Source: Smithella sp.
GTDB taxonomy: Bacteria; Desulfobacterota; Syntrophia; Syntrophales; Smithellaceae
DNA: 64,000 nt
Direction of reading: 5' to 3'
NCBI GenBank assembly: GCA_049517435.1
Contig: JBEKRZ010000003.1
Span: forward strand, 2,453-66,452
A program made the translations under genes and the position numbers. The first letter of the stretch is position 1. Every line of letters starts with the position of its first letter. The notes under the pieces were generated by a model, which saw only the letters and a list, made by a program, of their open reading frames with translations, had not been told where the DNA came from and did not search any database. Below, in pieces: positions 18,350-49,421 of this stretch.

Positions 18350-19969
18350 TCACTGCATTTTAGGTTCTGCTGTGAAAAGGGGTAGCAGCTTTTTATACCT
18401 AAGGGTGGAGATAACTTTCAGAGCCTCATCCTCGCTGTTGAATTTCCCGACTACAACTCGATACCATGTCTCGTTAGGGGTTGCTTTTTTGGATACAATC
18501 TCGATTTTTTTTCCTCTTAATGACGGTTCACTTCTGTAAACCTCGGCGAATTTAGGACTCCAGAACGTTCCGACATTAATTTTATACGTTCGATCGGAGG
18601 ATTTGACAATCAGGCTTTCTTCCGTAATTTTCGGCATCCTGACTTTTTGGTTTACAGAAATTAGATTGGCATTGGTAATCTCGGGGTTAGAATCTAAGAT
18701 GAGGCCAGCGCGGGTTATATTCGACCCTCCGTAATATTGTTGCGCTAAGCGACTAATGCTTTGCCCTTTCTTAACTATAATAGATTCCGTTGATATTGCA
18801 TCCTTACTTACGAGAATCGAAGATGCGGACGGCGGCATAGCTGTTTTGGTGGATTCAACGGGCAGCACCCTTGTCTCAACAGGTAGATAATGCACGTCTA
18901 CTTTTGAAGTCTTTGTGGTTGTTGTTTTAGGACCTGTGACAAGAGATCGTTCAGTATGGAAAAGAGAAGTCCACATGGATTCGATACCCCATTGATTTGA
19001 ATGCCCATATCGAAGGAATCCCAACATCAGAAAAAATATTACTACCAAACCAAGCAGGAACAGGAGGCTAACAGAGATCTTCCTTAGAGAAAGAATTCTT
19101 TCACGACGGATTGGATGCGTTCTTTTGACGAACATGGAGATTTTCCTGGGCTTGAATCTACGGGGTGACGGGCCTTCCAGATTTTTTATAACTTCACGAA
19201 TGATCTTTTCATCTATTATTTTTTGGGATTCACTGAAACCGTTTAGCAAGGCGTTGTCGCACACGATGTTGATGACGCGCGGAATTCCCTTCGCATGCTC
19301 GATGATTATAGAGATTGCCTTGGGGGTGAATGTCTTAGAAGTACTGCTCCCAACGAGTTTAAGGCGATGCTCAATATAGCCACGCGATTCTTCAGCGGTC
19401 ATGGTCGTAATTTCGTGTCTGATTCCTATATGTTGGTTGAGTGTTTTTAGGTTCGGTGAATTGAGCATATTTATAAATTCTGGTTGTCCCACGAAAACAA
19501 TTTTAAGACGCCCTGATACCAGGCAGGCCAAATCGGATAATTCCTCCAGTTCTTGCAGTGTTTCTTCCGAAAGATGCTGTGCCTCATCGATAATCACCGC
19601 CAGCGTCTCATCTCTGCCGATACGTGACAGATATTCAACAAAATGATGTAGAAGAGTTTTCTTGTCCTTTCCTATAACCTCAAGGTATCGCTCCTTGAGG
19701 ATGATTTCCAGAAGTTCTTCAAAGGTGATTGATGGATGAAAAATGAAGGCTGTTTTTACTTTATCATCGAGGTTCATCAAGAGATAGTGAATAAGGGTTG
19801 TTTTGCCTGTTCCCACTTCCCCTGTTATGCTAATAAATCCCTGCCGACTTTCTATGCCCTTCATCATCGCATCCAAGGCTTTTCGGTGGCTCGATGTTAA
19901 ATATAGAAATTTGGGATCCGGCGTGATTTCAAAAGGCTTTCCCGAAAATCCGTAAAATTCATTATACAT
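18350..19969 (-). CDS. ExeA-like AAA ATPase with TM segment and C-terminal LysM + SPOR-like peptidoglycan-binding domains
   Basis: 539 aa. The N-terminus YGFSGKPFEITPDPKFLYLTSSHRKAL...ITGEVGTGKTTL is ExeA/MshM-like. It is followed by a TM helix (LLFLLGLVVIFFLMLGFL), a LysM-like region (IVKKGQSISRLAQQYYG) and a SPOR-like end (WYRVVVGKFNSEDEALKVISTL). Confidence 0.75.
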   Translation of the reverse strand: MYNEFYGFSGKPFEITPDPKFLYLTSSHRKALDAMMKGIESRQGFISITGEVGTGKTTLIHYLLMNLDDKVKTAFIFHPSITFEELLEIILKERYLEVIGKDKKTLLHHFVEYLSRIGRDETLAVIIDEAQHLSEETLQELEELSDLACLVSGRLKIVFVGQPEFINMLNSPNLKTLNQHIGIRHEITTMTAEESRGYIEHRLKLVGSSTSKTFTPKAISIIIEHAKGIPRVINIVCDNALLNGFSESQKIIDEKIIREVIKNLEGPSPRRFKPRKISMFVKRTHPIRRERILSLRKISVSLLFLLGLVVIFFLMLGFLRYGHSNQWGIESMWTSLFHTERSLVTGPKTTTTKTSKVDVHYLPVETRVLPVESTKTAMPPSASSILVSKDAISTESIIVKKGQSISRLAQQYYGGSNITRAGLILDSNPEITNANLISVNQKVRMPKITEESLIVKSSDRTYKINVGTFWSPKFAEVYRSEPSLRGKKIEIVSKKATPNETWYRVVVGKFNSEDEALKVISTLRYKKLLPLFTAEPKMQ

Positions 19970-20195: not shown

Positions 20196-20330
20196 TGGCA
20201 GAGACATGCCGTGCGCAATTTCCTGGAAAAGACTTTCAAAAAGCATCCGGCGGTAGCTCCGATAATCAGACGCGCACCGGAATTTTTCACCTCCAACCAC
20301 GTACCGTTTTTTATTGACAACAAGCAATAA
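20196..20330 (+). pseudogene. 5'-truncated remnant of a paralogous B12-radical SAM gene (last ~40 codons)
   Basis: In-frame match to codons WQRPAVRNFLEKTFKKHPAIAPILRRTPEFFTSNHAPFF of 16332..17873. Over 39 codons I counted 7 synonymous-only and 5 replacement differences. No homology upstream of 20196. Confidence 0.7.
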
Positions 20331-20342
20331 TATTATAATTAT
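20314..20342 (+). promoter_or_regulatory. Promoter-like box (TTGACA, AT-rich -10 region) conserved after three rSAM gene tails
   Basis: TTGACAACAAGCAATAATATTATAATTAT. Related boxes occur at 18158 (TTGATAATAAGCAATAATATTATGATTAC) and 28665 (TTGACAACAGATGGTTAATATTATAGATA). The -10 assignment is ambiguous: AATTAT at a 17-nt spacer, or TATAAT at 14 nt. Confidence 0.45.
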
Positions 20343-20416
20343 AAGACTTGTTACGCAGGTCCACACAGTCTAAATAAATTGCAATAAATAATTGATTATT
20401 AAAGTTTAGGAGGTTA

Positions 20417-20522
20417 ACATAGATAAAGGCAAACATGGGGTAATCCGGCAACGCAAAACCACGTGTCCGAAAGTATTCGTTAAGAGGATACACGGAAAGA
20501 CGGGTTACCGAAGTGCATATGG
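20417..20522 (+). promoter_or_regulatory. Candidate c-di-GMP-I (GEMM-I) riboswitch in the adhesin leader
   Basis: Ordered blocks: AAAGGCAAAC (20425-20434); a short hairpin UGGG-GUAA-UCCG with a GNRA loop (20436-20447); ACGCAAAAC (20451-20459); a hairpin CGUGUCC...GGAUACACG (20462-20494); and GGGUUACCGA (20502-20511). From memory, Vibrio cholerae Vc2 has GGGCAAACC / GAAA hairpin / GACGCAAAGCC / P3 hairpin / GGGGUUACCGA. Confidence 0.55.
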
Positions 20523-20557
20523 AGAATACTCAGGTAGGATGACCTCTCCCTCTCTGT

Positions 20558-23500
20558 ATGGGAAATAAAAGCGTTTTTACCGGTGTTGTATTGATTATTT
20601 GTTATGGGAAAAAACTGGTTGACCAAGCGAGTTCAAGCCTGAACAATTGGCGTATCATGGCGACGCGCATTATGCTTTTGCTGATGGCTAGTGCCATTTG
20701 GCTGGTATGCGCCGGTGCGTCGTACGGAGCCATCATTATCAATGCTCCGATGACCGATACCAATAGCGCTGGCTGGGTATTGGGCGGCACACCCACTTCA
20801 TCCTTGCTGACAGGAAACGGTACAATCGATCCCGCTGGTTCGGGGTGGCTACGCCTGACCAACAATTCTGGTAACCAGACCGGTTTTGCCTATAATACAA
20901 CATCTTTCGATCTGAGCCAGGGAGTTCTCGTCCAGTTTGACTATGCCACATGGGGAGGAACCGGAGCAGACGGCTATAGTGTCTACCTGTTCGATGCAGG
21001 GGTAAGTACCTTCAACATAGGCGCCTTCGGAGGTTCTCTCGGCTACGCGCAAAAACTGCCACCAGCCGTTACCCCAGCCGTTCCGGGGATCAGCGGCGGT
21101 TATGTGGGGGTTGGCGTCGATGAGTACGGTAACTTTAGCAATCCCACTGAAGGGCGTTATCTAGGCCCCGGCGCTTATCCCAATACGGTAACAGTCCGTG
21201 GTCCTGTCGTCGGTTTCGGAGGGGGTGCAATCGGTGATACGATCAACGCCTCCTCCTATCCCTGGATAGCAACGTCCGCCAACAACGGCTCACTCTGGTA
21301 CAACGGCACAACCAGACCGGATCAGACCAGCACGAACTATCGGAAGGTGGTGATACTGGTCAGCCCTGCGCCGAATCCGGTCGTCAATGCCTGGATTCAA
21401 TTCGGTTACAACCAGCCGCTTACCCAGATGATTACCAATCAAGCGCTTCCCGCGATCTCGACGTCGCAACTATTGCATATCGGCTATGCCGCAAGTACCG
21501 GCGGTTCTACCAACTATCATGAAATCCGTAACCTGCTGGTAACCAGCCTAAACACGAGCACCGGAATCGACTTGGGCATCACCAAATCTGTTCTCGACAC
21601 GACGACAAGTTCGACAACTATCACAGCCGTAGGGGATGGCATCCGCTATACCGTTACCGCCCGTAACTACGGCCCCAACAACGTGACCGCTACCGGCGTG
21701 GGGATTGTCGACAACGTGCCGGCAACCATAACAGGGGTCACTTGGACCTGCGCCGTCGTTTCCGGCTCGCCGGCTGGGACAAGCTGCGGGGCGGCCTCCG
21801 GCTCAGGAAACAACCTGAACACCACTGCCAACCTTCCATATGGCGGAGCGGTTACTTATACCATCAATGGTACCGTGGGCGCGTCGGCACCAAGTACGCT
21901 CAGTAATACTGTAATCCTCGTCATCCCTGGATCGGTCGTAGATTACAATTCAGCCAACAACAGCGCCACAGCTAGCATTGCTGTTACATCCAACCTCTCG
22001 ACTTCGACCAAAACATGGCAGGATTTAAACGGAGGCGATCAGAATCCCAACGACGTGTTGCAGTTCACAATCAATCTGAAAGAGACCGCTGGCGCTGCCG
22101 CTTCAGGCGTTTCGGTAACGGACACACTACCGCTTACTCTGACTAATCTGACGGTCATAAGTTTCCCCGCCGGTGCGACCAACAACTCCACCAGTAGCGC
22201 TCTTAACATCACCGGCGTGTCGGTCCCGGCAAACGGCTCTGCTACGATCGTCTTCCAGGCAACCATCGCGAACGGGACGGCGGCAGGAACCCTGATCAAT
22301 AATACAGCGACCATCACCAACCCGAACGGCGCTATCGCGAGCCCTTCTTCGCCGACGATCACGGTCTCCGCGTCGCAGATTCCCGCCACTGGCAACAAGC
22401 CGCTCTATCTCTATGGAGGGGCTGCATCACCTTACAAGATGTCCCGTTACCCTACGCCGGGCACACCCACCACCGCTGCCATCGCTGCCAACGGAGGTTC
22501 GGCGGTCTGGAACGGGAATTGGAACGGGCTTGCCAGCAGCACGTTGCCCCTGCAGCTCAACGACACGATAACATCGGCCACCGCCACGCTCTACATCAAC
22601 GGTAGCTCCAATAACACTCGTAATGTCGAAGTACGCTTATACTGCTCCTCGAACGCTGCGGCCTACGCCTCCTGGCCATCAGCGGCCCTTGCCACGAACC
22701 CGCCCGTACCACCGGCGACGCCGACGGCGTATATCTTCAATCTGACGACTCTCAACGGTGGATTTACCTTCCCCGCCACCTGTGCCACGCCTAACTACTG
22801 GGTGCTGCAGGTGTTCAACAGAACCACAACTGCCGGACGGACGATTACCGTTGTTCCGGTGAGTGGCACGAACATTTCACAAGTCCTATTGGCCTCTAAC
22901 AACGTTATCAACGTGAACAGCGTCAACAACTACAGCGCGCCCTATCCCAGCGTTTCAACTCCCGCTGCGGGATATTATGTGGGAAGCCAGTGGGTCTATG
23001 TGCGGGCTTTGGTGAGCGACCCCTTTGGCAGCTACGATATCACTTCGGCATCAGTCACGATCAAGGATCCCAATAACAATGTCGTTGTAACCGCCGCCCC
23101 AATGTCTGTGCCCACCGGCGGCGACTCGGGCGCTGCGACCAAGTACTACGAGTACGCCTACCAAATCCCTTCCGCCGGCCCGGCGGGATACTGGACCGCC
23201 AGCGTGACGGTAAAAGAAGGGACTGAGAACACGGTCTCACATACCGCCGCGGGCGCATTCCAGGTGGTTCTGCCGCCGCTCCTGACTGTCGTTAAGTCAT
23301 CGAGTCCCAGTCCCAGCGTAAGCCCCGGAGGGGTTGTCATCTACACGGTACTTGTTACCAACACCGGCGCCGGAACAGCTACCAGCGTAGTTATAAATGA
23401 TATCTTAAGTCCCTACGTCCAGTGGGGGCTTAATTCCTATGGTACAGGAATCGCATTCCAGTTTACGGACGGTACGCCCGCTTCGGGGCTAACCCTCGGC

Positions 23501-23656
23501 ACGCCTGTCTATTCCAATAACCACGGAGCCACGTGGACCTATGTGCCCTCTGGCACGTACGACGGCAATGTTACTAACTGGCAGATTCCCATGAGCGGTA
23601 CGATGAACGCTAACGGGGCTAATTTTACTATCAAATATAAGGTGCGCGTCAATTAG
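20558..23656 (+). CDS. Large secreted surface protein: N-terminal lectin/ConA-like domain plus DUF11-type repeat domains
   Basis: 1032-aa ORF. The probable start is ATG at 20657 (MATRIMLLLMASAIWLVCAGASYGA, a signal peptide). GWLRLTNNSGNQTGFAYN is lectin-like. DUF11-like units are present (DLGITKSV...GDGIRYTVTARNYGPNNVTATGVGIVDNVPATITG; LTVVKSSSPS...VIYTVLVTNTGAGTATSVVINDIL). GC is about 55% against 30-38% in the flanks (hand-counted 60-nt samples). Confidence 0.75.
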   Translation: MGNKSVFTGVVLIICYGKKLVDQASSSLNNWRIMATRIMLLLMASAIWLVCAGASYGAIIINAPMTDTNSAGWVLGGTPTSSLLTGNGTIDPAGSGWLRLTNNSGNQTGFAYNTTSFDLSQGVLVQFDYATWGGTGADGYSVYLFDAGVSTFNIGAFGGSLGYAQKLPPAVTPAVPGISGGYVGVGVDEYGNFSNPTEGRYLGPGAYPNTVTVRGPVVGFGGGAIGDTINASSYPWIATSANNGSLWYNGTTRPDQTSTNYRKVVILVSPAPNPVVNAWIQFGYNQPLTQMITNQALPAISTSQLLHIGYAASTGGSTNYHEIRNLLVTSLNTSTGIDLGITKSVLDTTTSSTTITAVGDGIRYTVTARNYGPNNVTATGVGIVDNVPATITGVTWTCAVVSGSPAGTSCGAASGSGNNLNTTANLPYGGAVTYTINGTVGASAPSTLSNTVILVIPGSVVDYNSANNSATASIAVTSNLSTSTKTWQDLNGGDQNPNDVLQFTINLKETAGAAASGVSVTDTLPLTLTNLTVISFPAGATNNSTSSALNITGVSVPANGSATIVFQATIANGTAAGTLINNTATITNPNGAIASPSSPTITVSASQIPATGNKPLYLYGGAASPYKMSRYPTPGTPTTAAIAANGGSAVWNGNWNGLASSTLPLQLNDTITSATATLYINGSSNNTRNVEVRLYCSSNAAAYASWPSAALATNPPVPPATPTAYIFNLTTLNGGFTFPATCATPNYWVLQVFNRTTTAGRTITVVPVSGTNISQVLLASNNVINVNSVNNYSAPYPSVSTPAAGYYVGSQWVYVRALVSDPFGSYDITSASVTIKDPNNNVVVTAAPMSVPTGGDSGAATKYYEYAYQIPSAGPAGYWTASVTVKEGTENTVSHTAAGAFQVVLPPLLTVVKSSSPSPSVSPGGVVIYTVLVTNTGAGTATSVVINDILSPYVQWGLNSYGTGIAFQFTDGTPASGLTLGTPVYSNNHGATWTYVPSGTYDGNVTNWQIPMSGTMNANGANFTIKYKVRVN

Positions 23657-23810: not shown

Positions 23811-24305
23811 TCATAACTGCGATTGATCGGTCACTTCTAAAATGGCATCTACAGCCGGTTGCACAAGCGCCTGCACCTTGGGCGAAAGGGTTCGTTTAAA
23901 ATCAAAATCGTAACCGCGTATGGATACCAGATGCGCCTTGGGTTCACTCTGATGCATAGTTTTGAGAAATGCCAAAAGTGTCGCAGGCGTCATGTGATGG
24001 GTAAATGAAGAAGAAACATATTGTGCTTCAACCGGCGAGCAGTTGAGATCTTCCAGATCGGAACCGACATGGGCATCAACAAAAATTATTTTATCATAGC
24101 CCGTGAGCAGTTCCATTATTTCCGGCACAAGCTGGAGTAGGAAGATTGAATCATTGTCGCCACTCAGTTCATCCAGACCGGTATCACCTTCTTCCAGCAG
24201 TTTCTGCCCCAGTTGCCGGCGCAATTCGTTTATGACAGCAAAAGCAACGCCATCGTCCGCGCAGTATATATTGCCATAACCAATAATAATTGTTTTGGAA
24301 TTCAT
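23811..24305 (-). CDS. [NiFe]-hydrogenase maturation endopeptidase
   Basis: Start reassigned to ATG at 24305 (MNSKTIIIGYGNIYCADDGVAFAV), a HycI/HoxW-type motif. The 58-codon N-terminal extension in the ORF track runs through repeat R6. Confidence 0.8.
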   Translation of the reverse strand: MNSKTIIIGYGNIYCADDGVAFAVINELRRQLGQKLLEEGDTGLDELSGDNDSIFLLQLVPEIMELLTGYDKIIFVDAHVGSDLEDLNCSPVEAQYVSSSFTHHMTPATLLAFLKTMHQSEPKAHLVSIRGYDFDFKRTLSPKVQALVQPAVDAILEVTDQSQL

Positions 24306-24311
24306 TTTATT

Positions 24312-24448
24312 GTTGAAACTCCAATTTCGAAAGCGAAGCGCAGCGGAATTGGTAAGTTGAACAATCCCGCGAAGCGGAGGGTTTAATACCCCGCAGCTTG
24401 CTGCGGAATCTGTTTCCAAAGCTTGCTTTAGGGTTCGTTCCCGTGATT
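24312..24448 (+). repeat. H-family modular hairpin element, copy R6 (both termini)
   Basis: Starts GTTGAAACTCCAATTTCG-AAAGCGAAGCGCAG-CGGAATTGG. Contains CCGC-GAA-GCGG and CCGCAG-CTTG-CTGCGG. Ends TTTCCAAAGCTTGCTTTAGGGTTCGTTCCCGTGATT. It is antisense to the hydrogenase operon. Confidence 0.8.
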
Positions 24449-24454
24449 TTTCAG

Positions 24455-24492
24455 AAAAAAACAGGCGGGCAAGCATCACACTTATCCGCCTG
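24455..24492 (-). terminator. Intrinsic-terminator-like hairpin after the hydrogenase large subunit
   Basis: The minus strand reads CAGGCGG-N17-CCGCCTG followed by TTTTTTT. It starts 21 nt after the stop at 24513. Confidence 0.5.
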
Positions 24493-24512
24493 AAATATTA
24501 TTTGTGCCTGCA

Positions 24513-25940
24513 TTAGCGGCTGATGCGGTCAAGAACGGTGCCATCAGCAGCGATCAATGTAACTTCCAGCGGCATTTTGCCGATGGCATGTGTGGAACAT
24601 GACAAACAGGGATCATAGCAGCGAATAGCCGCCTCCACTCTATTTAACATTCCTTCAGTCAGCTTTGTACCGTCAACATATGCCTTAGCCACAGCTCCGG
24701 CCGCTGTGTGCATGGCCCAGTTGTTATTGCCTGTAGCCACAATGAGATTAACTCTGGTCAACACACCGTTTTCATCTGTGCCATAGTCATGGAAAAGCGT
24801 TCCGCGAGGCGCCTCAATTACGCCCACACCCTGACCGGGAACATTCGAAAGCGGCGGATAGTTGCGAACATTAGTAGACATAATATCCGGATCATCCAGC
24901 AACTGGCCGATGCGTTCCAGACCATAAAGAACTTCAATCATCCGCGCGTAGTGATAATACAGAGAACCCTCTACAGGTTTACCGCCATTTATTTGCCGGA
25001 ACAGTTTGAATTCTTCCTGAGCCAGCGGTGTGCCGATTTTATCGATGACATTCAGTCTGCCTAAAGGTCCGACGCGATAGAAACCCTGAGGGAAGCCCAT
25101 CTTACGCAGGTAAGGATGCTTCAAGAATGACCACGGCTCGACATGCTCGGCAATGAAAGACAGATAGTGCTCCGGTTTAAACTGAGCCAGAAAATTGCCC
25201 TGCGCGCCTTTCACGCGAATTTCACCATCATATAGTTGAAGTCCTCCTTCCGCATCCACCAGCCCCATATAGCTGGAGGGAAAAGAGGCAAAAGATGAGG
25301 CGGTCTCCTTATTAGCTTCAAGCCAGCCTTTAGCAATGCTGATCGCCTCCTGAGCTATTGCGGTCATTGCTTTTAGCTCTGACGCTATGGTTTTACGATC
25401 TTCCTTGGTCAACGGAGCATTAACTCCGCCCGCAACAGCAAAATTAGCATGAACGCGTTTTCCGCCCAGCTTCTCGATTATCTGCTGACCATAGCGGCGC
25501 AGGTTAACCGCTTTCAGCGCCAGTTTCGGATTTTCTTTTATTATTCTGAAAACATTGCGCGTTGCGGGATCAGAATCAAAGCCAAAGAGAAGATCAGGTG
25601 CCGCCAGATGGAAAAAATGCATGCCATGTGACTGAACTGTCTGTCCCATGTGCATCAATTCGCGCAGTAGCTTGGCGGTACGCGTAGGCTGCACACGAGA
25701 AATCGCATCGCATGCCTTGGAAGCCGCCAGGTGATGGCTGATCGGGCAAATTCCGCATATGCGCTGTGTAATTTGCGGCATTTCATAATACGGACGGCCT
25801 TCGCAAAATTTTTCCAAACCACGGAATTCATCAACGTGGAAAAAAGTTTTTTCCACCACGCCTTGATCATCCAGATGTATTGTTACACGTCCATGACCTT
25901 CGATACGTGTTACAGGCTCAATAGTTATCTTCCGACCCAT
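24513..25940 (-). CDS. [NiFe]-hydrogenase large subunit (group 3-like, cytosolic)
   Basis: 475 aa. N-terminal RIEGH and RICGICPISH; C-terminal DPCLSCSTHA metal-site motifs. Confidence 0.92.
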   Translation of the reverse strand: MGRKITIEPVTRIEGHGRVTIHLDDQGVVEKTFFHVDEFRGLEKFCEGRPYYEMPQITQRICGICPISHHLAASKACDAISRVQPTRTAKLLRELMHMGQTVQSHGMHFFHLAAPDLLFGFDSDPATRNVFRIIKENPKLALKAVNLRRYGQQIIEKLGGKRVHANFAVAGGVNAPLTKEDRKTIASELKAMTAIAQEAISIAKGWLEANKETASSFASFPSSYMGLVDAEGGLQLYDGEIRVKGAQGNFLAQFKPEHYLSFIAEHVEPWSFLKHPYLRKMGFPQGFYRVGPLGRLNVIDKIGTPLAQEEFKLFRQINGGKPVEGSLYYHYARMIEVLYGLERIGQLLDDPDIMSTNVRNYPPLSNVPGQGVGVIEAPRGTLFHDYGTDENGVLTRVNLIVATGNNNWAMHTAAGAVAKAYVDGTKLTEGMLNRVEAAIRCYDPCLSCSTHAIGKMPLEVTLIAADGTVLDRISR

Positions 25941-25952
25941 AAAAGTTCTCCT

Positions 25953-26498
25953 CTAATCGTATGTAAATAATTCGGGCGGCAAAATTACCGGTGTGCGTCC
26001 CGCAAGCAACTCCGTTAATGCATAAAAAAATGCATCCGCCCTCGGCGGACAACCCGGAATGAACAGATCAACCTTGACCACTTTATCTACTCCAACAACC
26101 ATATCCAAAGGCTTTCCCAACTCATCGGAATCCGGAATAACTCCATCAACCGTGCTTTCCGTTTCCAGGTACGCGCGCCTTAAGGCCGCATCGGTACCCA
26201 CCAGATTACGCATGGCCGGAACACCGCCGAATGTTGCGCAGTCGCCAACAGCGATGAGGATATCGCAACGCTCACGCATTTGTTTGGCTACTTCAACATT
26301 ATGAGTATTGCAAATAGCTCCTTCCAGAATGCCCACAGTTACGCCTTCTTTAGGCGGATGCTTGAGATCCGTTATCGGGCTCGATGTAAATTCAACCAAT
26401 TCCGACAACGCTACAATACGCTCATCAATATCTAGAAACGACATATGACATCCTGCGCAGCCTGCCAACCAGTCTGTCGCTACCTTGACTTTTACCAT
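25953..26498 (-). CDS. [NiFe]-hydrogenase small subunit (short, HoxY/delta-type)
   Basis: 181 aa. ATDWLAGCAGCHMSFLD and IPGCPP motifs. No Tat signal. Confidence 0.88.
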   Translation of the reverse strand: MVKVKVATDWLAGCAGCHMSFLDIDERIVALSELVEFTSSPITDLKHPPKEGVTVGILEGAICNTHNVEVAKQMRERCDILIAVGDCATFGGVPAMRNLVGTDAALRRAYLETESTVDGVIPDSDELGKPLDMVVGVDKVVKVDLFIPGCPPRADAFFYALTELLAGRTPVILPPELFTYD

Positions 26499-26511
26499 CC
26501 AGGTTCTCCTT

Positions 26512-28326
26512 TCATTTAAGTGACTTCATCACTTCGGCTGAAACTTTATCTATAGACACGGCAATATTCTTGCCCAGTTCTGCGGATAATAATTGCAATG
26601 CTTCCCAGTCCGGCTTAGCATCGCCCGCAGGTTCTACCGCTTTATTGATATTCTGTATTCTTCCTTCGATATTGGTCAAACTGCTGTTTTGTTCCGACCA
26701 GATTGTCACAGGCAATACCAGATCCGCCCGTTCTGTAAGAGGCGATAAGTAACTTGCCTGCGCCACGATAAACGTATTTTTGGGAACCCCCTTGAATAAA
26801 TCATCGCTCTCGTAATTTTGCTCACCCATTAAGACATATAAAAGTTTGAGGCCGGCCGGATTATAACCGTTATTTAATCCTAACGCCGCCGCGGCTTTCG
26901 TGTTGACGCCCGATTCAATTATAATGTAGTTTGCTTTATCTTTCAGTTTCTTGAGCTCGGCCATGGCAGTTTTGGTAATACCAGTGCCGTAGAGAATAAA
27001 CGGATTATTGGCTCTTTTGGCAACTTCAATGGCTTTATTTATATCAGCCATATTGACATTCATGAAGGCAAACGGAGCCAGACCGTTTTTCTTATTATCA
27101 ACCACAATCAGTCTTGCTCCTTTGTCCACGGCGCGTTTAATAATGAAGGAAGCAACCGGCTGGTCGTTTAAAGGATCGGCACCGGCAACAAGAATAATAT
27201 CGCTTTTGGCAATATCCTCCAACTTGCTCTGAACCTTGTCGAAAATCCTGGGAGCCACAGTATTGGTGAGGCCGATATTGGAGACCTTCAATTTCTCATT
27301 GAATAATTTTTTAATTAAATACAGGGCTTCATTAGAAGAATAACTTCCCGTAAGCACGCCTATTTCCGAAGCCTTGACTGTGTTAATCTGTTTAGCCAAA
27401 GTCTGGATTGCTTCTTCCCAGCTTACTTCTTTGAACTTTCCTTTAGTGCGTAAAAGAGGAGCGGTAAGTCTCTGGCGGCTATCATATAAGGGTTCAAAAC
27501 GGCCCATTTTGCAGAGCAGTCCTTTATTGACCGGAGCATCCCAATCACCCAAAACACACAGAACATTTCCGCCGCGTGTTACAACTTCCGTACCACAGCC
27601 GATGCCGCATTGATTGCAGGTGCTTTTAACTTTTGTAGTCAGGCTGTCTTTGCCCATAAAAGCGCTTCTTTTATAAAACAGCGCTCCCGTTGGACAAACC
27701 TGAGTACAGGTGCCGCAGGAAATACAGGAAGATTCACCAAGCGGAATATTGGCATCCGCTCGAACCATACTCTCGCTTCCGCGTTGCCCTAAACCCAAAG
27801 TGTGATTGGCCACAAGCTCATCGCAGGCGCGAATACATCTTCCGCAAAGAACACACCGGTTGTGTTCCATCAGGTAGTATTTATGCGTGGCATCCAGTGG
27901 AAAAGCTTTTGTATAAGTGGAGAATACCCAGTGATCTACATGATAACGGTAGCCGAGATTCTGCAACTCGCAACTGCCGCTCATCTCACAATATGGACAA
28001 AAATGATTTCTTTCCGAAAAAATCATATCCAGAACAAGCTTGCGGGCATCAGTCACCATTTTGGAATCTGTCTGTATTTCCATTCCTTCGGTTACAGGAA
28101 ATGTACATGAAGTCTGCAAAGCACGCTGCCCTTTTATTTCTACGATACACATTCGGCAAGCCCCAACCGCAGACAGCGCGGGATGGTCACAAAGCGTGGG
28201 GATATCAATGCCCGCTTCCCTTGCGGCCTGCAGAACGGTAATTCCCGCCTTTGTGCTGATTTTCTGGCCATTAATAATAATATTTGCCATAGTCATCTTT
28301 TGTCTCGCCTCCTTATCATTAACCAT
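26512..28326 (-). CDS. Fe-S electron-transfer subunit, HoxU/NuoG-like (2Fe-2S + multiple 4Fe-4S + truncated molybdopterin-oxidoreductase-like domain)
   Basis: 604 aa. Cluster motifs: CDHPALSAVGACRMC (2Fe-2S), HFCPYCEMSGSC, CVLCGRCIRAC, CISCGTCTQVCP and CNQCGIGC. These are followed by a roughly 360-aa NuoG/FdhA-like C-terminal domain. Confidence 0.8.
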   Translation of the reverse strand: MVNDKEARQKMTMANIIINGQKISTKAGITVLQAAREAGIDIPTLCDHPALSAVGACRMCIVEIKGQRALQTSCTFPVTEGMEIQTDSKMVTDARKLVLDMIFSERNHFCPYCEMSGSCELQNLGYRYHVDHWVFSTYTKAFPLDATHKYYLMEHNRCVLCGRCIRACDELVANHTLGLGQRGSESMVRADANIPLGESSCISCGTCTQVCPTGALFYKRSAFMGKDSLTTKVKSTCNQCGIGCGTEVVTRGGNVLCVLGDWDAPVNKGLLCKMGRFEPLYDSRQRLTAPLLRTKGKFKEVSWEEAIQTLAKQINTVKASEIGVLTGSYSSNEALYLIKKLFNEKLKVSNIGLTNTVAPRIFDKVQSKLEDIAKSDIILVAGADPLNDQPVASFIIKRAVDKGARLIVVDNKKNGLAPFAFMNVNMADINKAIEVAKRANNPFILYGTGITKTAMAELKKLKDKANYIIIESGVNTKAAAALGLNNGYNPAGLKLLYVLMGEQNYESDDLFKGVPKNTFIVAQASYLSPLTERADLVLPVTIWSEQNSSLTNIEGRIQNINKAVEPAGDAKPDWEALQLLSAELGKNIAVSIDKVSAEVMKSLK

Positions 28327-44846: not shown

Positions 44847-44937
44847 TGAAAAAATAAGACTCATGAGAAAAAACCACTTTATCGATTTTCTGTTTTTTAC
44901 AAAACAGTCGATAATAAATTAGGAAACCTTATCAACA

Positions 44938-47079
44938 ATGAAGGGTTTTAATATGTTTAGCATAGATCGAAATATTAAGCCAGTATTCAAGCTGTATAAA
45001 GGCCTAGCTGAACGCAACGAAATAACTGCCCCTTGGCGTTTCCGCAATCAGGATCTTATCCGAAATCACAAACCCAACAAGAAGATTATCAAACAGAAAG
45101 AACTGATTAATCTATGGAATAGTCATCACTTTACGGATGGCATGGTATACGTGCAGCTCCATCACCCTCAGTATAACGAAGATATTCTAGTCCGGGCACA
45201 TCCGGAACCTTGCGGCAATGGCTCGATGACCTGCCGCTGGCCGGAGAAGAGCCGCAGCATTACAGAAAGGGCAGATATTTTAAATATCATTTTCACGGAC
45301 GGTCTTTCGGTGTTTCTTATCCCCACCCGGCTAAAGGACGTTCAAAAGGATTATTTCACCATTCACCTGCCCGACAAGGGTTATATACTTGGTCAACGTC
45401 GGGCCAGACGCTATCTTTGCCAAGGCATTGAGGTCGCAGTGGTGCAAAACGGTTTTTGGTCTCAAGGCCGGCTTGTTGATTTCAGCGCCCTGGCTTTTAG
45501 CGTTGAGGTCAGCCCTGAGCCAGCGGGGTCTTTTCGCTGGTTTAATGCCGACAGCCCATCAACCATCCATCTTTATCGGAATGAGCAGATAATTTTTTCG
45601 GCATCCTGCAACTTAATCCGGCAGACATCTGATCAGACAACACGGGATATGGTCTTTGCCCCGGCAACCAGCCAAACGAGTCGTGTTCTTAAGAAGAAAT
45701 CGCGCAATTCCCGCGTCGGGGTCACCCCCATGCCGAATATTACTTTTGATCACCCGGCAACAAGAGAAAAAATTCAACTGGATATTTATGATCTTTCAAC
45801 CTCGGGCTTTGCCGTTTATCTATCGGCCGAAGAGGATGTACTGATGACCGGAATGATCATTTCTGGTCTGACCATTAATTATGCCGATGCCTTGAAAATG
45901 AAATGCAATGCCCAAATCCTCTACCGTCGCGAGGAGAAAAAGGGAAATATTCGCTACGGCTTTGTCATCCGTGATATGGATATCGTCAATTATAACCGTT
46001 TGGGTCATATTATCATGAATATTATCGATCCGAACACCCATATTGCCGATGAAGTGGATGCGGATAAATTATGGAAATTTCTTTTTGAGAGCGGTTTCAT
46101 TTATCCTAAAAAATATAATCTGGTTCAGTCTCACCGGCAGCCCATGAAAGAATTCTATCGGAGGCTTTATCGCGACAATCCGGAATTCATCGCTCAACTG
46201 ACATACCAGCGAAACGGCCGGATTTACGGACACATCTCCATGATCCACTCCTACGAGCGGACATGGATGATTCATCACCTTGCCGCCGGTACGCTCAACA
46301 ATAAGCGGACAGGCGTGCAAGTTCTGAAACAAGCCCTCCGTTATATTGATGGTATCTATCGTCTCCCCGCCGCCCAAATGGACTATATGATGTTTTATTA
46401 TCGTCCCGAAAACAGTTTTCCCGATCATTTTTTTGGCGGTTTTGCCAGGCATCTCAATAATCCGCAAGCCTGTTCTCTTGATCTCTTTTCCTATCTTAGT
46501 TATCCGACGTCCGGTGTCCGTCAACCGCTTCCGGCGGGGTGGTCACTGGAACCGTTTATATCATCCGATTTCGGTGAAATAGACCGTTTTTACCGGAATA
46601 TCTCCGGAGGTCTCTTCCTAGAAATTTTACGTTTGGACAAAGAACAGGAAAACACTGAATCTCTGTCGCAACTGTATGCCCGGAACGGGTTCAAAAGAAG
46701 TTGTCAAAGCTTTTCATTGAAAGAAAAAAGGAGGTTAAAGGCTGTACTCATTGTAAACCAATCGGATCCGGGCCTTAGCCTGTCGGACTTCCTCAATGGG
46801 ATTAAAATTATAGTCAATGATGCGGACGGATTGCCCTGGGAAGCGCTATCGTCTGCCATTTCTCAATTAGTCGGCTCTTATACGATTGACAAAATACCTA
46901 TTCTAGTTTATCCATCAAGTTACTTGGAGTCAAAAGAAGTTCCTTCTAAAAAACAATATAATTTATGGGTCATGGATGTGAATTATGGTAAAGAGCTTGG
47001 TGAATATTTTGTGGCAAATACAAAACATTGGTTTAAATCTTTAATCCGTTTTCTCATTAGGAAATATCTGAAAAAATAA
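44938..47079 (+). CDS. Tandem PilZ-like domains fused to a large GNAT-like C-terminal half (function unknown)
   Basis: 713 aa. PilZ-like 1 has QRRARRY (RxxxR) followed by DFSALA. PilZ-like 2 has KSRNSRV followed by DLSTSG (DxSxxG). The C-terminal region WMIHHLAA..NKRTGVQVLKQALRYI...MMFYYRPENSFPDHFFGGFA resembles GNAT motif A/B topology. All domain calls were made by eye. Confidence 0.55.
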   Translation: MKGFNMFSIDRNIKPVFKLYKGLAERNEITAPWRFRNQDLIRNHKPNKKIIKQKELINLWNSHHFTDGMVYVQLHHPQYNEDILVRAHPEPCGNGSMTCRWPEKSRSITERADILNIIFTDGLSVFLIPTRLKDVQKDYFTIHLPDKGYILGQRRARRYLCQGIEVAVVQNGFWSQGRLVDFSALAFSVEVSPEPAGSFRWFNADSPSTIHLYRNEQIIFSASCNLIRQTSDQTTRDMVFAPATSQTSRVLKKKSRNSRVGVTPMPNITFDHPATREKIQLDIYDLSTSGFAVYLSAEEDVLMTGMIISGLTINYADALKMKCNAQILYRREEKKGNIRYGFVIRDMDIVNYNRLGHIIMNIIDPNTHIADEVDADKLWKFLFESGFIYPKKYNLVQSHRQPMKEFYRRLYRDNPEFIAQLTYQRNGRIYGHISMIHSYERTWMIHHLAAGTLNNKRTGVQVLKQALRYIDGIYRLPAAQMDYMMFYYRPENSFPDHFFGGFARHLNNPQACSLDLFSYLSYPTSGVRQPLPAGWSLEPFISSDFGEIDRFYRNISGGLFLEILRLDKEQENTESLSQLYARNGFKRSCQSFSLKEKRRLKAVLIVNQSDPGLSLSDFLNGIKIIVNDADGLPWEALSSAISQLVGSYTIDKIPILVYPSSYLESKEVPSKKQYNLWVMDVNYGKELGEYFVANTKHWFKSLIRFLIRKYLKK

Positions 47080-49421
47080 TGAATGACACCCCCCTTTATA
47101 ATAGTCGTATCTTCAAGAGCTATGTGGAGTATCTGAACAGGTACTTTCCGGATATTGATATTGCTCCCATTTTAAAATATGCGAATATTGAAGCCTATCA
47201 ACTGGATGATGAGGGGCATTGGTTGACGCAGGAACAGGGTGATCGTTTTAACGCAATAATTACAAAGATGACCCAGGATCCGGACATTTCCAGAAAAGTA
47301 GGACGGTTTTCCGCTACCTCCCGTGCCTCCGGGGCGTTGGGACAGTATGTGATTGGCCTCATTAATCCGAAGATGGCTTATGCCATTCTCGGGAATCTTA
47401 ACGCCCGTCTCAGCCGGGGGACCATTTTTACGACCAAAGTCGTTGGGCCTTATCAAGTTGAGGCAAGAGCTGTATTACAGCCGGGGGTGGTTGAAAAACC
47501 TTATCAGTGTCTTAACCGGCTGGGTACACTGGAGTCGATGACGAAACCTTTCACCGATGAATTTGCCAATATAGAGCATCCTGTCTGTATTCATAAGGGA
47601 GGGGACTGCTGCCTCTATATCATCAGATGGAAAAAAACACGCGCCTTTGTCTGGAAAAAGATCCGCAGTTATTCTTTGATTATCGGTTTTGTGATCTCCC
47701 TCGTCTTATTTGACATTCTCAAACCCGCTCACTGGGATGCGCTGATCTTGATGTATATGATCATGGTCATGGGCGTTACGCTATATACAGAACATCTGGA
47801 AAAAAAGGAGCTCCTCGCCAATATCCAGAACCAGGGGGATTCAGCGGAACGTCTCCTGGAGCAGATCAATAAACGATATAATGAGTCCCTGTTGATCCAG
47901 GAAATCGGCCAAGCCTCCTCCATGATCATGGAGGAAGATCAACTGCTCAACTTCATAATGGAGTCCCTGGGAAAAAGACTGGATTTCGACCGGGGCATGA
48001 TTATGCTTGCCAACAAGCAAAAAGACAGTCTCGTTTATACGGTCAGTTATGGATATAACCCAAGAGATGAAAATTTCGTGAAGAACATTAAATTTCATCT
48101 GGATAACCCTCTCTCCAAGGGTGTGGCGGTAAATGCTTTCAAAAACCAAAAACCAATCTTGGTTAATGATATCTCCGAAATCGCGAATGATCTTTCAGCG
48201 AAAAGCATCGATTTTGTCCGCGCCATGGGCGCCCAATCTTTTATCGTCGTTCCTATTGTTTATAAAGGGGAATCCATAGGTATTATGATGGTGGATAATG
48301 TGCAGTCAAAAAAACAACTCGGCCAGACGGAGATGAGTCTTTTGATGGGCATTGCCCCGCAGATCGGTATCAGCATCAATAATGCCATCTCTTATCAGAA
48401 AATAAAAGAGAGCGAGGCGCGGTTCAGATCGCTCAGCGAAAATGCGCCGGATATAATTTATACCTTGGGTATCAACGGGGAATTTACCTATGTCAACCCG
48501 GCAATTGAAACGATTTTGGGGTATCGGCCCGAGGAAATCATTGGTAAACATTTTATAAATATTGCCAGAAAAGAAGAGATAGCGACATATATTAAAGCCT
48601 TTAAGCAAGTCAGAGACCGGAAGCAAACCATTAAAGAAGAGATAGGCACCCTTCTTCATAAGGATGGTACGGAGCGGTACTTCAGCCTCAGTGGTGCGCC
48701 AAATTTTGATTCAGAAGGAAATTTTATCGGATTGGTCGGAACATTTAAAAATCTGACTGACATCAGAAGATCGGAAGCAGAACTGAAAAAGAGCCTTGAA
48801 AAGCTTCAATCAGCCATGAGCAGCACCATTGATGCTATTTCCCTGATTGTTGAATCAAGGGATCCCTACACGGCAGGTCATCAAAGACGCGTAGCTAAGC
48901 TCGCCGTGGCCATAGCCGAAAAATTGGGTTTATCGGAAGAGAAAATCGAATTTATTCGTATGGGCAGCCTGATCCACGATATAGGGAAAATATATATTCC
49001 CGCTTCTATCCTGACAAAACCATCACGATTGAGTGACCTTGAATTCGCAATGATGAAAACTCATCCGACCGTGGGTTATAAAATATTGAATAAAGTTGAT
49101 TTTATTCCAGTTATCGTTGATATAGTTTATCAACACCACGAAAGAATAGATGGTTCGGGATATCCATTAGGGATTTCCGGTGATAAAATATTTTTAGAAT
49201 CCAGAATTGTCGCCGTTGCAGACACGGTTGAAGCCATTGCCAGCAACCGTCCATACAGACCTGCACGGGGAATAGCGTTTGCGCTGGAAGAAATTAAAAA
49301 ACAACGCGGTCTTGGCCTCGACGCCAGAGTTGTTGATACCTGTCTGGATCTTTTTGAAAAACAAGGCTTCGAGTTTAAGCAGGATGACGCAGAATTGGAT
49401 ATTGGTGTTCAATGGATTTAG
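47079..49421 (+). CDS. Sensor-TM-GAF-PAS-HD-GYP protein (putative c-di-GMP phosphodiesterase)
   Basis: 780 aa. The start overlaps the upstream stop (ATAATGA). An unassigned N-terminal sensor (~190 aa, Cys-rich HPVCIHKGGDCCLY) is followed by 2 TM helices, GAF, PAS (NAPDIIYTLGINGEFTYVNP) and HD-GYP (HDIGKIYIP; HHERIDGSGYPLG). Confidence 0.85.
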   Translation: MNDTPLYNSRIFKSYVEYLNRYFPDIDIAPILKYANIEAYQLDDEGHWLTQEQGDRFNAIITKMTQDPDISRKVGRFSATSRASGALGQYVIGLINPKMAYAILGNLNARLSRGTIFTTKVVGPYQVEARAVLQPGVVEKPYQCLNRLGTLESMTKPFTDEFANIEHPVCIHKGGDCCLYIIRWKKTRAFVWKKIRSYSLIIGFVISLVLFDILKPAHWDALILMYMIMVMGVTLYTEHLEKKELLANIQNQGDSAERLLEQINKRYNESLLIQEIGQASSMIMEEDQLLNFIMESLGKRLDFDRGMIMLANKQKDSLVYTVSYGYNPRDENFVKNIKFHLDNPLSKGVAVNAFKNQKPILVNDISEIANDLSAKSIDFVRAMGAQSFIVVPIVYKGESIGIMMVDNVQSKKQLGQTEMSLLMGIAPQIGISINNAISYQKIKESEARFRSLSENAPDIIYTLGINGEFTYVNPAIETILGYRPEEIIGKHFINIARKEEIATYIKAFKQVRDRKQTIKEEIGTLLHKDGTERYFSLSGAPNFDSEGNFIGLVGTFKNLTDIRRSEAELKKSLEKLQSAMSSTIDAISLIVESRDPYTAGHQRRVAKLAVAIAEKLGLSEEKIEFIRMGSLIHDIGKIYIPASILTKPSRLSDLEFAMMKTHPTVGYKILNKVDFIPVIVDIVYQHHERIDGSGYPLGISGDKIFLESRIVAVADTVEAIASNRPYRPARGIAFALEEIKKQRGLGLDARVVDTCLDLFEKQGFEFKQDDAELDIGVQWI

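Follow-up and report, generated by a model that had tools for sequence, protein, structure and literature searches.

Does the intergenic region described here carry a genuine c-di-GMP riboswitch and, if so, which ligand does it sense, how would it control the gene downstream and is this copy still in working order? A preliminary description had placed a c-di-GMP-I (GEMM-I) aptamer in the leader of a surface-protein gene and had named a covariance-model search with Rfam RF01051 as the check. We ran cmscan with the 4,227 families of Rfam 15 over the entire window, i.e. the whole 64-kb stretch of DNA that was analysed, and obtained a c-di-GMP-I match at 20418-20512 on the plus strand (RF01051, 48.3 bits, E = 2.2e-6), which exceeds the gathering score of 35 bits by 13 bits and covers the model from end to end (positions 1-87 of 87). 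With the search restricted to positions 20250-20750 (501 nt), the E-value is 1.7e-8. None of the other families in this search of the 64-kb window attained its own gathering score, and RF01051 outscored its clan variants, RF03167 and RF03168; our own covariance model, R1, gives the window aptamer 91.3 bits. The aptamer is intergenic and lies between divergent genes, on the same strand as and upstream of the gene that it would regulate, its neighbours being a minus-strand open reading frame that ends at 19969 and a plus-strand one that begins at 20591. The conserved blocks listed in the preliminary description were found on the plus strand (AAAGGCAAAC at 20425-20434, ACGCAAAAC at 20451-20459 and GGGUUACCGA at 20503-20511), and so was the GNRA-capped hairpin UGGG-GUAA-UCCG (plus strand, 20436-20447). 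The coordinates are collected in Table 1, in which the 3' limit of the aptamer follows the way P1 is annotated in RF03167, a related model.

Table 1. Features of the leader and of the regulated gene, with their positions in the window and the basis of each assignment
Feature	Position	Strand	Basis or remark
Promoter-like site, TTGACA-17 nt-AATTAT	20314-20342	+	Consensus scan, 10/12 matches; prediction only
c-di-GMP-I (GEMM-I) aptamer, including P1 3' strand	20418-20515	+	RF01051, 48.3 bits; model R1
P1 5' strand, CAUAG	20418-20422	+	Partners C20509 and G20513-G20515; A20421.G20510 mismatch
G20 equivalent	20428	+	Unpaired G directly 5' of paired GC; CM alignment
P2 hairpin, CAUGGG-GUAA-UCCGGC	20434-20449, loop 20440-43	+	CM alignment
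Junction, AACGCAA	20450-20456	+	CM alignment
P3	20457-20506	+	CM alignment; pair counts in 12 copies
C92 and C93 equivalents	20508-20509	+	CM alignment; C93 is the first P1 pair
Hairpin CAUAUGGAGA/UCUCUGUAUG, between aptamer and ribosome-binding region	20516-20560	+	MFE and centroid folds
U-tract and Shine-Dalgarno region, UUUUUACCGGUGUUG	20574-20588	+	Putative OFF-state partner of 20415-20428
Regulated gene, 1,021 codons	20591-23656	+	Probable TTG start at 20591; ORF open from 20558

About a dozen orthologous genes are preceded by intact aptamers at the equivalent position, with RF01051 scores of 61.6 bits at locus L003, 53.7 at L001, 56.8 at L018 and 53-56 at L019-22, L024 and L025. When the fold is mapped onto 12 ortholog-locus copies, 94.4% of the cells are paired and six pairs have changed on both sides, values that 0 of 500 shuffles attain, and alignments that were slid out of register are 21-51% paired. 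These copies support the GEMM-I fold. The alternative that AT-rich intergenic DNA resembles the GEMM-I consensus by chance would agree with the short and mismatched P2 and with a leader whose single-sequence fold is no more stable than its shuffles (z = -0.53). However, a whole-window E-value of 2e-6 speaks against it, and the recurrence of RF01051 at the same position before orthologs, in homologous copies above the gathering score (53-62 bits) with compensatory changes in the helices, indicates that the match is beyond chance; covariance-model score, ortholog copies and compensatory changes together effectively refute accidental resemblance already, leaving it a vanishingly small probability. 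We are thus nearly certain that positions 20418-20515 of the plus strand form a real GEMM-I aptamer.

The helices of this aptamer depart in several places from those of its orthologs. In P1, the column of the A20421.G20510 mismatch is C-G or U-A in the orthologs, and between L003 and the L001 type the change is compensatory. P2 had been called unusually short, and indeed the window has four standard pairs plus an A.G mismatch (the series runs C.C and A.G, both non-standard, then U-G, G-C, G-C and G-U) versus five pairs in the orthologs, where the helix is CCGGA/UCCGG and covaries (CAGG/CCUG, CCAGG/CCUGG). In the unconstrained ensemble P2 has a probability of ~0.01, out-competed by an alternative 9-bp pairing between 20439-47 and 20501-09. 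Within the junction, C20452 is equivalent to C44, G20453-C20454 pair with C20430-G20429, and A20455 and A20456 are equivalent to A47 and A48. At the conserved G42 column the window has A20450, while 11 of 12 family copies have G; the covariance-model score passes even so. An A.A pair may stand in for the sheared G.A pair. The A25.G42 sheared pair and the tertiary roles of C44-G83 and A48-U90 have been described (PMC11705072), and the equivalents of the tertiary contacts are intact at the sequence level (C20452 for C44, G20499 for G83, A20456 for A48 and, for U90, a U within GGUU 20503-06).

P3 is built from AACC (20457-60) with GGUU (20503-06), CGU (20462-64) with ACG (20500-02), UCC (20466-68) with GGA (20494-96) and GUAU (20473-76) with AUAC (20488-91), with A20461 as a bulge and G20499 as the G83 equivalent. 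In the unconstrained ensemble the UCC/GGA and GUAU/AUAC pairs reach probabilities of 0.98-0.99, except for the U-A of UCC/GGA, at 0.59. The preliminary description had instead drawn a longer bulged hairpin, CGUGUCC (20462-68) with GGAUACACG (20486-94); this sequence is present, yet the conserved P3 follows the Rfam register, and we rejected the other pairing as P3 because its partner is absent in L001-type copies and the ensemble prefers UCC/GGA with GUAU/AUAC. The UAAG to which attention had been drawn in that hairpin is not a tetraloop receptor. The window aptamer belongs to the subtype with a GYRA tetraloop (here GUAA) and no 11-nt receptor, and this receptor-less GEMM-I subtype has already been described (PMC1950547).

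The ligand contacts are canonical in the covariance-model alignment (G20 = G20428, A47 = A20455, C92 = C20508), and the equivalents of the G21-C46 and C22-G45 pairs are followed by an AAA linker (20455-57) of the kind that is near-invariant in GEMM-I RNAs (PMC1950547). G20 reads the G-alpha base of the ligand, a variant with A20 having also been characterised, and C92 is the Watson-Crick partner of G-beta (PMC6140456, PMC5888326). The window and every one of the 12 family copies have G at position 20, and the adenine that marks GEMM-Ib is absent. The preliminary description had likewise read a G at the Vc2 G20 position, which is borne out by G20428, and the G20/A20 rule (PMC6140456) favours c-di-GMP. 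Hence c-di-GMP rather than cGAMP is predicted and, judging from the aptamer sequence, is very probably the ligand. A sensor of the GEMM-Ib kind, responding to 3',3'-cGAMP alone or to cGAMP and c-di-GMP alike, as in Geobacter, would have an identical fold, would suit a Desulfobacterota-like lineage, a group rich in cGAMP riboswitches (PMC8835794), and would draw on the observation that position 20 is not the sole determinant of selectivity in every natural sequence (PMC6140456). Nevertheless, the published cGAMP binders carry A at this position (A14 in Gs1761) and wild-type Vc2, with G20, discriminates against cGAMP (PMC6140456), which, with G in 12 of 12 family copies, makes such a sensor very improbable here.

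The gene under control required a revised model. It had been described as a giant adhesin starting at 20657 behind a leader of ~340 nt. Coding sequence upstream of that ATG is conserved in frame, so that the gene most likely starts at TTG 20591, not at ATG 20657, and the leader is reduced to ~240 nt. The N-terminal extension thereby gained, (M)IICYGKKLVDQ..., shows coding conservation and lines up with the start of the L001-type orthologs, whose ATG stands exactly at the TTG of the window and is in each case preceded by GGUG. The Shine-Dalgarno (SD) sequence of the window is GGTG (20582-85), ahead of TTG 20591, and L018 carries a full GGAGGUG at the same spot. An upstream open reading frame or a -1 frameshift at GGGAAAAAAC (20606-15) was considered and dropped, since the main frame is open through this segment and encodes the conserved G-K-K-L. 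The product is of more ordinary size than had been supposed (~1,000-1,021 amino acids) and is secreted, with a weak L-type-lectin-like N-terminal domain followed by DUF11 repeats (Pfam: DUF11, 63.7 bits, and Lectin_L-type, 30 bits, under its cutoff; NCBIfam: TIGR01451 and TIGR04226). Its nearest relatives are found in Smithella and other uncultured 'delta proteobacterium' MAGs, in place of the Geobacter-type setting of the preliminary description. Transcription is predicted to start near 20349, in the region between the divergent genes. The PilZ and HD-GYP genes also reported in the window are indeed there, at 44923-47079 and 47061-49421, and the HD-GYP protein has a GAF-PAS-HD-GYP architecture; as biological context they speak for the c-di-GMP reading.

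The orthologs suggest how ligand binding could be passed on to this gene. In their leaders the P1 5' strand and the junction (AACACYGAUAAAG) are complementary to the U-tract and SD, with 14 of 14 pairs at L003, L021, L022, L024 and L025 and 13 of 14 at L001 and L019; this switch helix (-11.7 to -16.8 kcal/mol) beats all of the 524-1,315 background windows at these loci and is recovered independently by the RNAalifold consensus. The changes within it are one-sided only, with no double-sided covariation. Such pairing of the P1 5' strand with the U-tract and SD points to a translational switch, and because the helix shares with the aptamer both the P1 5' strand and the invariant GAUAAAG, G20 included, helix and ligand pocket should be mutually exclusive. 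The window helix has 12 of 14 pairs, with 1x1 mismatches at A20421.G20582 and A20423.C20580, and its energy of -4.8 kcal/mol is equalled by 7.6% of background windows. The modelled gain in SD accessibility in the window is small (0.29 to 0.39 in one calculation, 0.30 to 0.60 in another). The modelled opening is small in the L001 type too, since there the freed SD can pair with the local downstream segment CCGGAAAAA.

We propose that without ligand the segment 20415-20428 (P1 5' strand and junction to G20) would pair with 20575-20588, and ribosome binding would be blocked. With c-di-GMP bound, the same segment would be taken into P1 (partner CG..GUG, 20509-20515) and into the binding pocket; the SD would be freed, and the surface protein would be made at high c-di-GMP, as by an ON switch. 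As an overall explanation, we consider a c-di-GMP-I riboswitch exerting translational control from the leader of a lectin/DUF11 gene to be likely. SD occlusion as the platform in this gene family, for which the orthologs provide most of the evidence, is almost as probable, and for the ON polarity with c-di-GMP the balance tips slightly in favour. Across the window leader no other anti-SD partner stands out; the best, a window-specific pairing of GCAAACAUGG (20429-38) with the SD region, has a probability of ~0.5 in the ensemble and an energy of -10.2 kcal/mol, and is not claimed because 7% of background windows equal this energy. As a separate observation, a hairpin between ACCGGU (20579-84) and ACUGGU (20613-18) shows C-G, U-G and U-A across three leaders; both arms lie in or adjoin coding sequence, and the variation may therefore be a codon-level coincidence.

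A real c-di-GMP riboswitch in this leader might nonetheless have another output, be it OFF control, Rho-dependent or intrinsic termination, or an effect on mRNA stability. The leader is long and has an extra hairpin at 20516-20560, of which an equivalent, divergent in sequence, is found in L003 and the L001 type and none in L018; a run of six to seven U directly follows the P1 3' strand in the L001-type and L018 orthologs, and GEMM-I switches of either polarity, including some that act through terminators, have been described (PMC1950547, PMC4933901). Moreover, when the aptamer core is fixed in the fold, the outer pairs of the long-range helix can form alongside P2 and P3 and close a multi-branch junction, in which case the ligand could stabilise SD occlusion. 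The inner 5-8 pairs of that helix, however, use invariant pocket nucleotides including G20, so that the helix should compete with the ligand and ON polarity is favoured, and it accords with known biology that high c-di-GMP should induce an adhesin-like protein. In the window itself no U-run follows P1 and no terminator-like site scored between aptamer and start codon (20512-20600); an intrinsic terminator platform was accordingly rejected, the hairpin at 20516-60 being followed by GGGAAAUAAAAGCG with no U-tract. We therefore regard these other outputs as unlikely and retain SD occlusion relieved by c-di-GMP as the preferred reading.

Somewhat more weight, but still well under an even chance, goes to the possibility that the window copy is a weakened or decaying relic whose regulation is lost or marginal, with the gene constitutive or controlled otherwise. 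Of the intact RF01051 copies in the gene family, this one scores lowest with the Rfam model (48.3 versus 53-62 bits); it carries uncompensated changes in the P1 5' strand, in the 5' arm of P2 (where C has become A, giving A.G) and at G42 (to A), its P2 is predicted to lose to an alternative helix, and its anti-SD helix, with two mismatches, does not rise above background. The gene family, furthermore, tolerates loss of the aptamer: GGC has become GUU at L037 and GAU at the paralogous locus L010, where C92 is also A and the score falls to 31 bits; the aptamer of L006 is degenerate, that of L059, whose protein is 88% identical, is deleted, and the leaders of L002, L016 and L017 have none. The leader segment that runs from ~20349 onward matches the L010 leader almost letter for letter, and the 5' leader and P2 5' arm of the window resemble that decayed copy. 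Against decay, the score remains 13 bits above the gathering score, all of the checked ligand- and tertiary-contact nucleotides except G42 are intact, of the five changes that fall in paired positions three preserve a wobble pair, and the U-tract/SD partner segment is retained. The core aptamer is also 81-91% identical to the orthologs, against 72-88% identity in the coding sequence; this extra conservation was set aside as too modest a sign of selection (90.5% versus 88% for L003, core 84% versus 72% for L001). Given the P1 and P2 mismatches, the change of G42 to A and the two anti-SD mismatches, the window copy may be weakened, as far as its sequence can tell, and we put the chance that it still regulates efficiently at a little over one half.

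More tentatively, the leaders may represent one riboswitch at successive stages (intact, weakened mosaic, core-mutated and deleted), with the window copy being rewired or in the course of being lost. Read in this way, L003 and L021-25 would be intact, with the 14-bp anti-SD helix, the window copy a weakened mosaic with a 5' half like that of a decayed paralog, L037, L010 and L006 core-mutated, and L059 a clean deletion. A candidate rewired pairing may also be noted, between the mutated P2 arm of the window, ACAUGG, and CCgGUGU at the SD.

The archetypal c-di-GMP-I/GEMM-I riboswitch is Vc2, from the Vibrio cholerae VC1722/tfoY leader (RF01051; PDB 3IRW, 3MXH). The window aptamer shares with it the three-helix junction, G20, A47 and C92, the AAA linker, the C44 and G83 partners and a GNRA loop on P2. 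It differs in having GUAA where Vc2 has GAAA and no 11-nt receptor in P3 (GYRA subtype, PMC1950547), in the A at G42, in a P2 of only four standard pairs and in its proposed platform, a long-range helix that occludes the SD. A similar genetic setting is that of Bc2, the c-di-GMP-I ON switch that precedes cap, the collagen adhesion protein gene of Bacillus thuringiensis BMB171 (PMC4933901). Both aptamers belong to the 5' UTR of a gene for a surface adhesion protein, the ON response having been demonstrated experimentally in Bc2 and being inferred here, but phylum and protein family differ, and Bc2 works by transcription anti-termination (PMC4933901), whereas the window has no terminator and the orthologs point to SD occlusion. 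The GEMM-Ib RNAs of Geobacter (Gs1761, Gm0970) resemble the window in fold, in Rfam family and in coming from a similar lineage (the former Deltaproteobacteria), and they often precede extracellular or surface functions; they carry A where the window and all family copies have the G of G20. The scaffold is common also to RF03167 (c-di-GMP-I-GGC) and RF03168 (c-di-GMP-I-UAU), of the same clan (CL00126), but the RF03167 consensus has G at the A47 site and that of RF03168 has U at the equivalents of positions 20 and 92, as opposed to G, A and C in the window.

This copy is an ordinary, perhaps somewhat weakened addition to a known RNA family, and leaves what is known of the riboswitch class unchanged. 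What it adds is a new and confident c-di-GMP-I riboswitch for an uncultured, probably Syntrophia- or Smithella-like lineage of Desulfobacterota, a placement drawn from the relatives of the regulated gene, together with a corrected gene model whose probable TTG start lies 66 nt upstream and restores a conserved N-terminal extension. The ortholog leaders offer a clear and testable platform design that uses the P1 5' strand a second time, as the anti-SD. Close relatives differ in whether they keep the aptamer and in how far it has decayed, which gives a modest yet workable record of riboswitch turnover and, should the succession of stages prove true, a useful natural system for the loss or re-tuning of a riboswitch. 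In this lineage, the riboswitch would tie c-di-GMP directly to the production of a secreted surface protein with lectin-like and DUF11-repeat domains, a link in keeping with the general rule by which adhesion is promoted when c-di-GMP is high.

The aptamer in the leader of the lectin/DUF11-repeat protein gene is a member of the c-di-GMP-I (GEMM-I) riboswitch family. When the whole window was searched against Rfam 15 with cmscan, RF01051 was the sole family to reach its gathering score, matching 20418-20512 on the plus strand over the full length of the model (48.3 bits versus a gathering score of 35, E = 2.2e-6). On a 501-nt sub-region the E-value was 1.7e-8, and two variants of the same clan, c-di-GMP-I-GGC and c-di-GMP-I-UAU, had lower scores and were suppressed. 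This search had been proposed as a check in the preliminary description, whose list of conserved GEMM-I blocks on the plus strand is borne out; a score under the gathering threshold, which would have refuted the proposal, was not obtained. Tests of the score, the architecture, the nucleotides of the pocket and the position in the genome all agree with membership.

We assigned the anatomy in window coordinates from the covariance-model (CM) alignment; for P1 we followed the way this helix is annotated in the related model RF03167. The conserved core deviates at one nucleotide: G42 (numbering of Vc2, the V. cholerae archetype), the sheared partner of A25 in Vc2 (PMC11705072), is A20450 in the window and G in 11 of 12 family copies. 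The longer hairpin described earlier, CGUGUCC with GGAUACACG, is present as sequence but competes with the conserved P3 register; it is missing in the L001-type homologues and not favoured by the ensemble, and was rejected as P3. The UAAG motif was ruled out as a tetraloop receptor, since a GUAA loop without the 11-nt receptor corresponds to the GYRA subtype described at the discovery of GEMM (PMC1950547).

Features of the leader, the aptamer and the neighbouring genes (window coordinates)
Feature	Position	Strand	Assignment
Divergent upstream gene	18350-19969	-	AAA ATPase related to PEP-CTERM-system ATPases (XrtA/PEP-CTERM-type; TIGR03015, 240 bits, below its cutoff), with fused LysM and SPOR peptidoglycan-binding domains
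Promoter-like TTGACA-17-AATTAT	20314-42	+	predicted
P1	G20422-C20509; A20421.G20510 mismatch; two-A bulge; U20420-G20513; A20419-U20514; C20418-G20515	+	RF03167 annotation
G20 equivalent	G20428	+	CM alignment
G21-C22 paired with G45-C46	20429-30 with 20453-54	+	CM alignment
P2	CAUGGG 20434-39; GUAA loop 20440-43; UCCGGC 20444-49	+	CM alignment; pairs C.C, A.G, U-G, G-C, G-C, G-U
A47 equivalent	A20455	+	CM alignment
P3	AACC 20457-60/GGUU 20503-06; CGU 20462-64/ACG 20500-02; UCC 20466-68/GGA 20494-96	+	CM alignment
P3 bulge; distal P3	A20461; GUAU 20473-76/AUAC 20488-91	+	CM alignment
G83 equivalent	G20499	+	CM alignment
C92 equivalent	C20508	+	CM alignment
Downstream cluster, unrelated to the riboswitch	23811-28326	-	molybdopterin/Fe-S (NuoG-like or formate-dehydrogenase-like) subunit, NiFe hydrogenase small and large subunits, maturation-protease-like ORF
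PilZ-domain protein, 718 aa	44923-47079	+	
GAF-PAS-HD-GYP protein, 786 aa	47061-49421	+	

Protein-guided scans covered 15 genomic loci (from Smithella MAGs, 'uncultured delta proteobacterium' MAGs, Geomonas and Nitrospirota MAGs) and 80 metagenomic loci with relatives of the regulated gene. With Rfam and R1, a covariance model built in this analysis, intact aptamers of 53-62 bits were found before the orthologs at L001/L020, L003, L018/L063, L019, L021, L022, L024 and L025. These end 156-176 nt before the position that aligns with the window ATG 20657; further intact aptamers lie 311 nt upstream in L041 and, with an ORF in between, 810 nt upstream in L029. Pairing in the core helices amounts to 94.4% over 12 copies, with 6 pairs changed on both sides; none of 500 shuffles reached the observed pairing values, and a control with slid 3' partners reduced pairing to 21-51%. 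The L001-type aptamers carry a pyrimidine-rich insertion of ~35-45 nt in distal P3 (CUUUCCCCCACUCCUCUUCUUU...; L001 2770-2820 and the matching region of L019-L025), and in them the P1 3' strand is followed at once by a U6-7 run. The L041 copy (1095-1187) also scores 68.5 with RF03167 (c-di-GMP-I-GGC), above the gathering score of 59 despite A at A47 where the RF03167 consensus has G; this variant model, with P1 included, thus also picks up canonical sequences.

The window aptamer has the c-di-GMP configuration, with A47, C92 and, at position 20, G. Natural cGAMP binders carry A there, and Vc2 with its wild-type G20 selects against cGAMP (PMC6140456; PMC5888326). Position 20 is G in 12 of 12 family copies, which rules out membership in GEMM-Ib, and the position-20 rule predicts, with good confidence, c-di-GMP as the ligand, as had been proposed from the same residue. 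The PilZ and HD-GYP genes noted before are indeed c-di-GMP signalling genes of the organism in the same window; they overlap by 19 nt and likely form one operon of a c-di-GMP receptor and a phosphodiesterase.

The regulated product, previously called a giant adhesin, is a secreted repeat protein of ~1,000 aa with DUF11/TIGR01451 repeats, DUF7619 and an RrgB-like isopeptide domain (Pfam, NCBIfam), together with a weak L-type-lectin-like N-terminal domain that lies below its cutoff; it has no PEP-CTERM tail. The reading frame is open from 20558 to 23656. A signal peptide follows the M at 20657, which the preliminary description took as the start, but orthologs keep in-frame coding further upstream, (M)I[IL][CY]Y[GR]KKL[VI][DE]..., with conservative replacements in L024. 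The TTG at 20591, shared with L003, occupies the exact position of the ATG in L001-type orthologs, and GGUG lies 5 nt upstream in every case (a full GGAGGUG in L018). Because of this conserved coding, the aligned ATG and the spacing of GGUG, we consider TTG 20591 the most likely start, with a Shine-Dalgarno sequence (SD) at 20582-85 and 1,021 codons. The resulting extension of ~22 residues, (M)IICYGKKLVDQASSSLNNWRI, lies ahead of the hydrophobic core of the signal peptide (window 20591-20656, L001 2935-3000, L016 from 1453, L017 from 1017). In L018 it has no canonical start codon, with ATT 5 nt after GGAGGUG; an additional insertion of ~25 codons is present in L018, L037 and L059, and the L059 one contains an in-frame stop. 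From the promoter-like site, transcription would start near 20349, and the leader would measure ~240 nt rather than the ~340 nt first estimated, with the aptamer beginning ~70 nt into it.

No intrinsic terminator was scored between the aptamer and the start codon in the window. When the leaders are compared, variation downstream of the aptamer is lowest in GCRUUUUUAYCGGUGUU, which directly precedes the start codon. In the orthologs this segment is complementary to the P1 5' strand and the junction up to G20 (UAACACYGAUAAAG). Pairing extends over 14 of 14 positions in L003, L021, L022, L024 and L025, 13 in L001 and L019, and 11 in L018, with duplex energies of -11.7 to -16.8 kcal/mol; in L003 and the L001-type loci none of the 524-1,315 background windows of that locus does as well. 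RNAalifold predicts this long-range helix too, with the aptamer and a downstream hairpin inside it. The helix shows one-sided changes only. The SD-side CGGUG mimics the P1 3' strand CG(AA)GUG, and the inner pairs use the invariant GAUAAAG, G20 included, so that the helix and the P1-closed, ligand-bound pocket are mutually exclusive.

The simplest reading of this arrangement is a translational ON switch: without ligand, the aptamer 5' strand would pair with the SD, the P1 3' strand becoming part of the intervening hairpin at its base, and with ligand P1 would form and free the SD. Such induction of an adhesin-like protein fits Bc2-cap, where induction of an adhesin at high c-di-GMP was shown experimentally, although there the mechanism is anti-termination (PMC4933901). 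The modelled opening of the SD is small in L001-type leaders because the freed SD can pair locally with CCGGAAAAA. The opposite, OFF polarity is conceivable from the modelling, in which the outer part of the long-range helix can coexist with the folded aptamer core. Under the ON reading, the window copy would resemble other c-di-GMP-I switches of surface and adhesion genes.

The window copy is probably a weaker switch than its orthologs. Two 1x1 mismatches, A20421.G20582 and A20423.C20580, interrupt its version of the long-range helix (20415-28 with 20575-88), and the energy of -4.8 kcal/mol is equalled by 7.6% of background windows; no other anti-SD partner in the window leader is statistically distinguishable. 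P1 and P2 each have an A.G mismatch, two other pairs of P2 are wobbles, and A stands in place of G42; these changes all lie on 5' strands and none is compensated. In the unconstrained ensemble a perfect 9-bp helix, GGUAAUCCG (20439-47) with CGGGUUACC (20501-09), replaces P2, whose pair probability is ~0.01. Both segments, the P2 loop with its 3' arm and the P3 3' end with C92/C93, are conserved across the family. Imposing the bound-like fold costs ~5-8 kcal/mol and raises SD accessibility from 0.29-0.30 to only 0.39-0.60. Conservation of the aptamer core is similar to that of the coding sequence. The aptamer probably still binds c-di-GMP; a relic with little regulatory effect is a less likely reading.

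Across the gene family the distribution of the aptamer is patchy. None was found in the inspected upstream regions of L002, L016 and L017, where a Fur-family-like gene (HHH..C..CG / CP.C motifs) lies directly upstream of the ortholog, which suggests a different regulatory context in these genomes; this gene occupies ~100-400 nt upstream of the gene start and ends ~50-100 nt before the lectin/DUF11 gene. L059 encodes a protein with 88% identity across the 115 matched N-terminal residues; here the aptamer is deleted and the U-tract/SD segment kept, and the deletion (1290-1350) leaves only GGGGTTAC, adjoining an upstream terminator-like hairpin. Decayed copies occur in L037 (1165-1260; invariant GGC to GUU), in L010, a paralog from the MAG of L003 (1187-1263; GGC to GAU, C92 to A, 31 bits), and in L006 (2824-2911; degenerate, 22 bits with R1). 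The window leader is itself a mosaic, since its 5' part, from ~20349 through the P2 5' arm, resembles L010 and the remainder resembles L003, which suggests recombination between paralogous leaders. Window 20349-20439 is nearly identical to L010 1113-1206, which precedes a paralogous DUF11 gene; the platform and the remaining part of the aptamer are like L003.

The window aptamer adds another member to the already-known family RF01051. Beyond that, the gene model of the regulated protein is corrected, the orthologs show a clear anti-SD design, and close relatives provide a natural series in which the aptamer decays and is lost.
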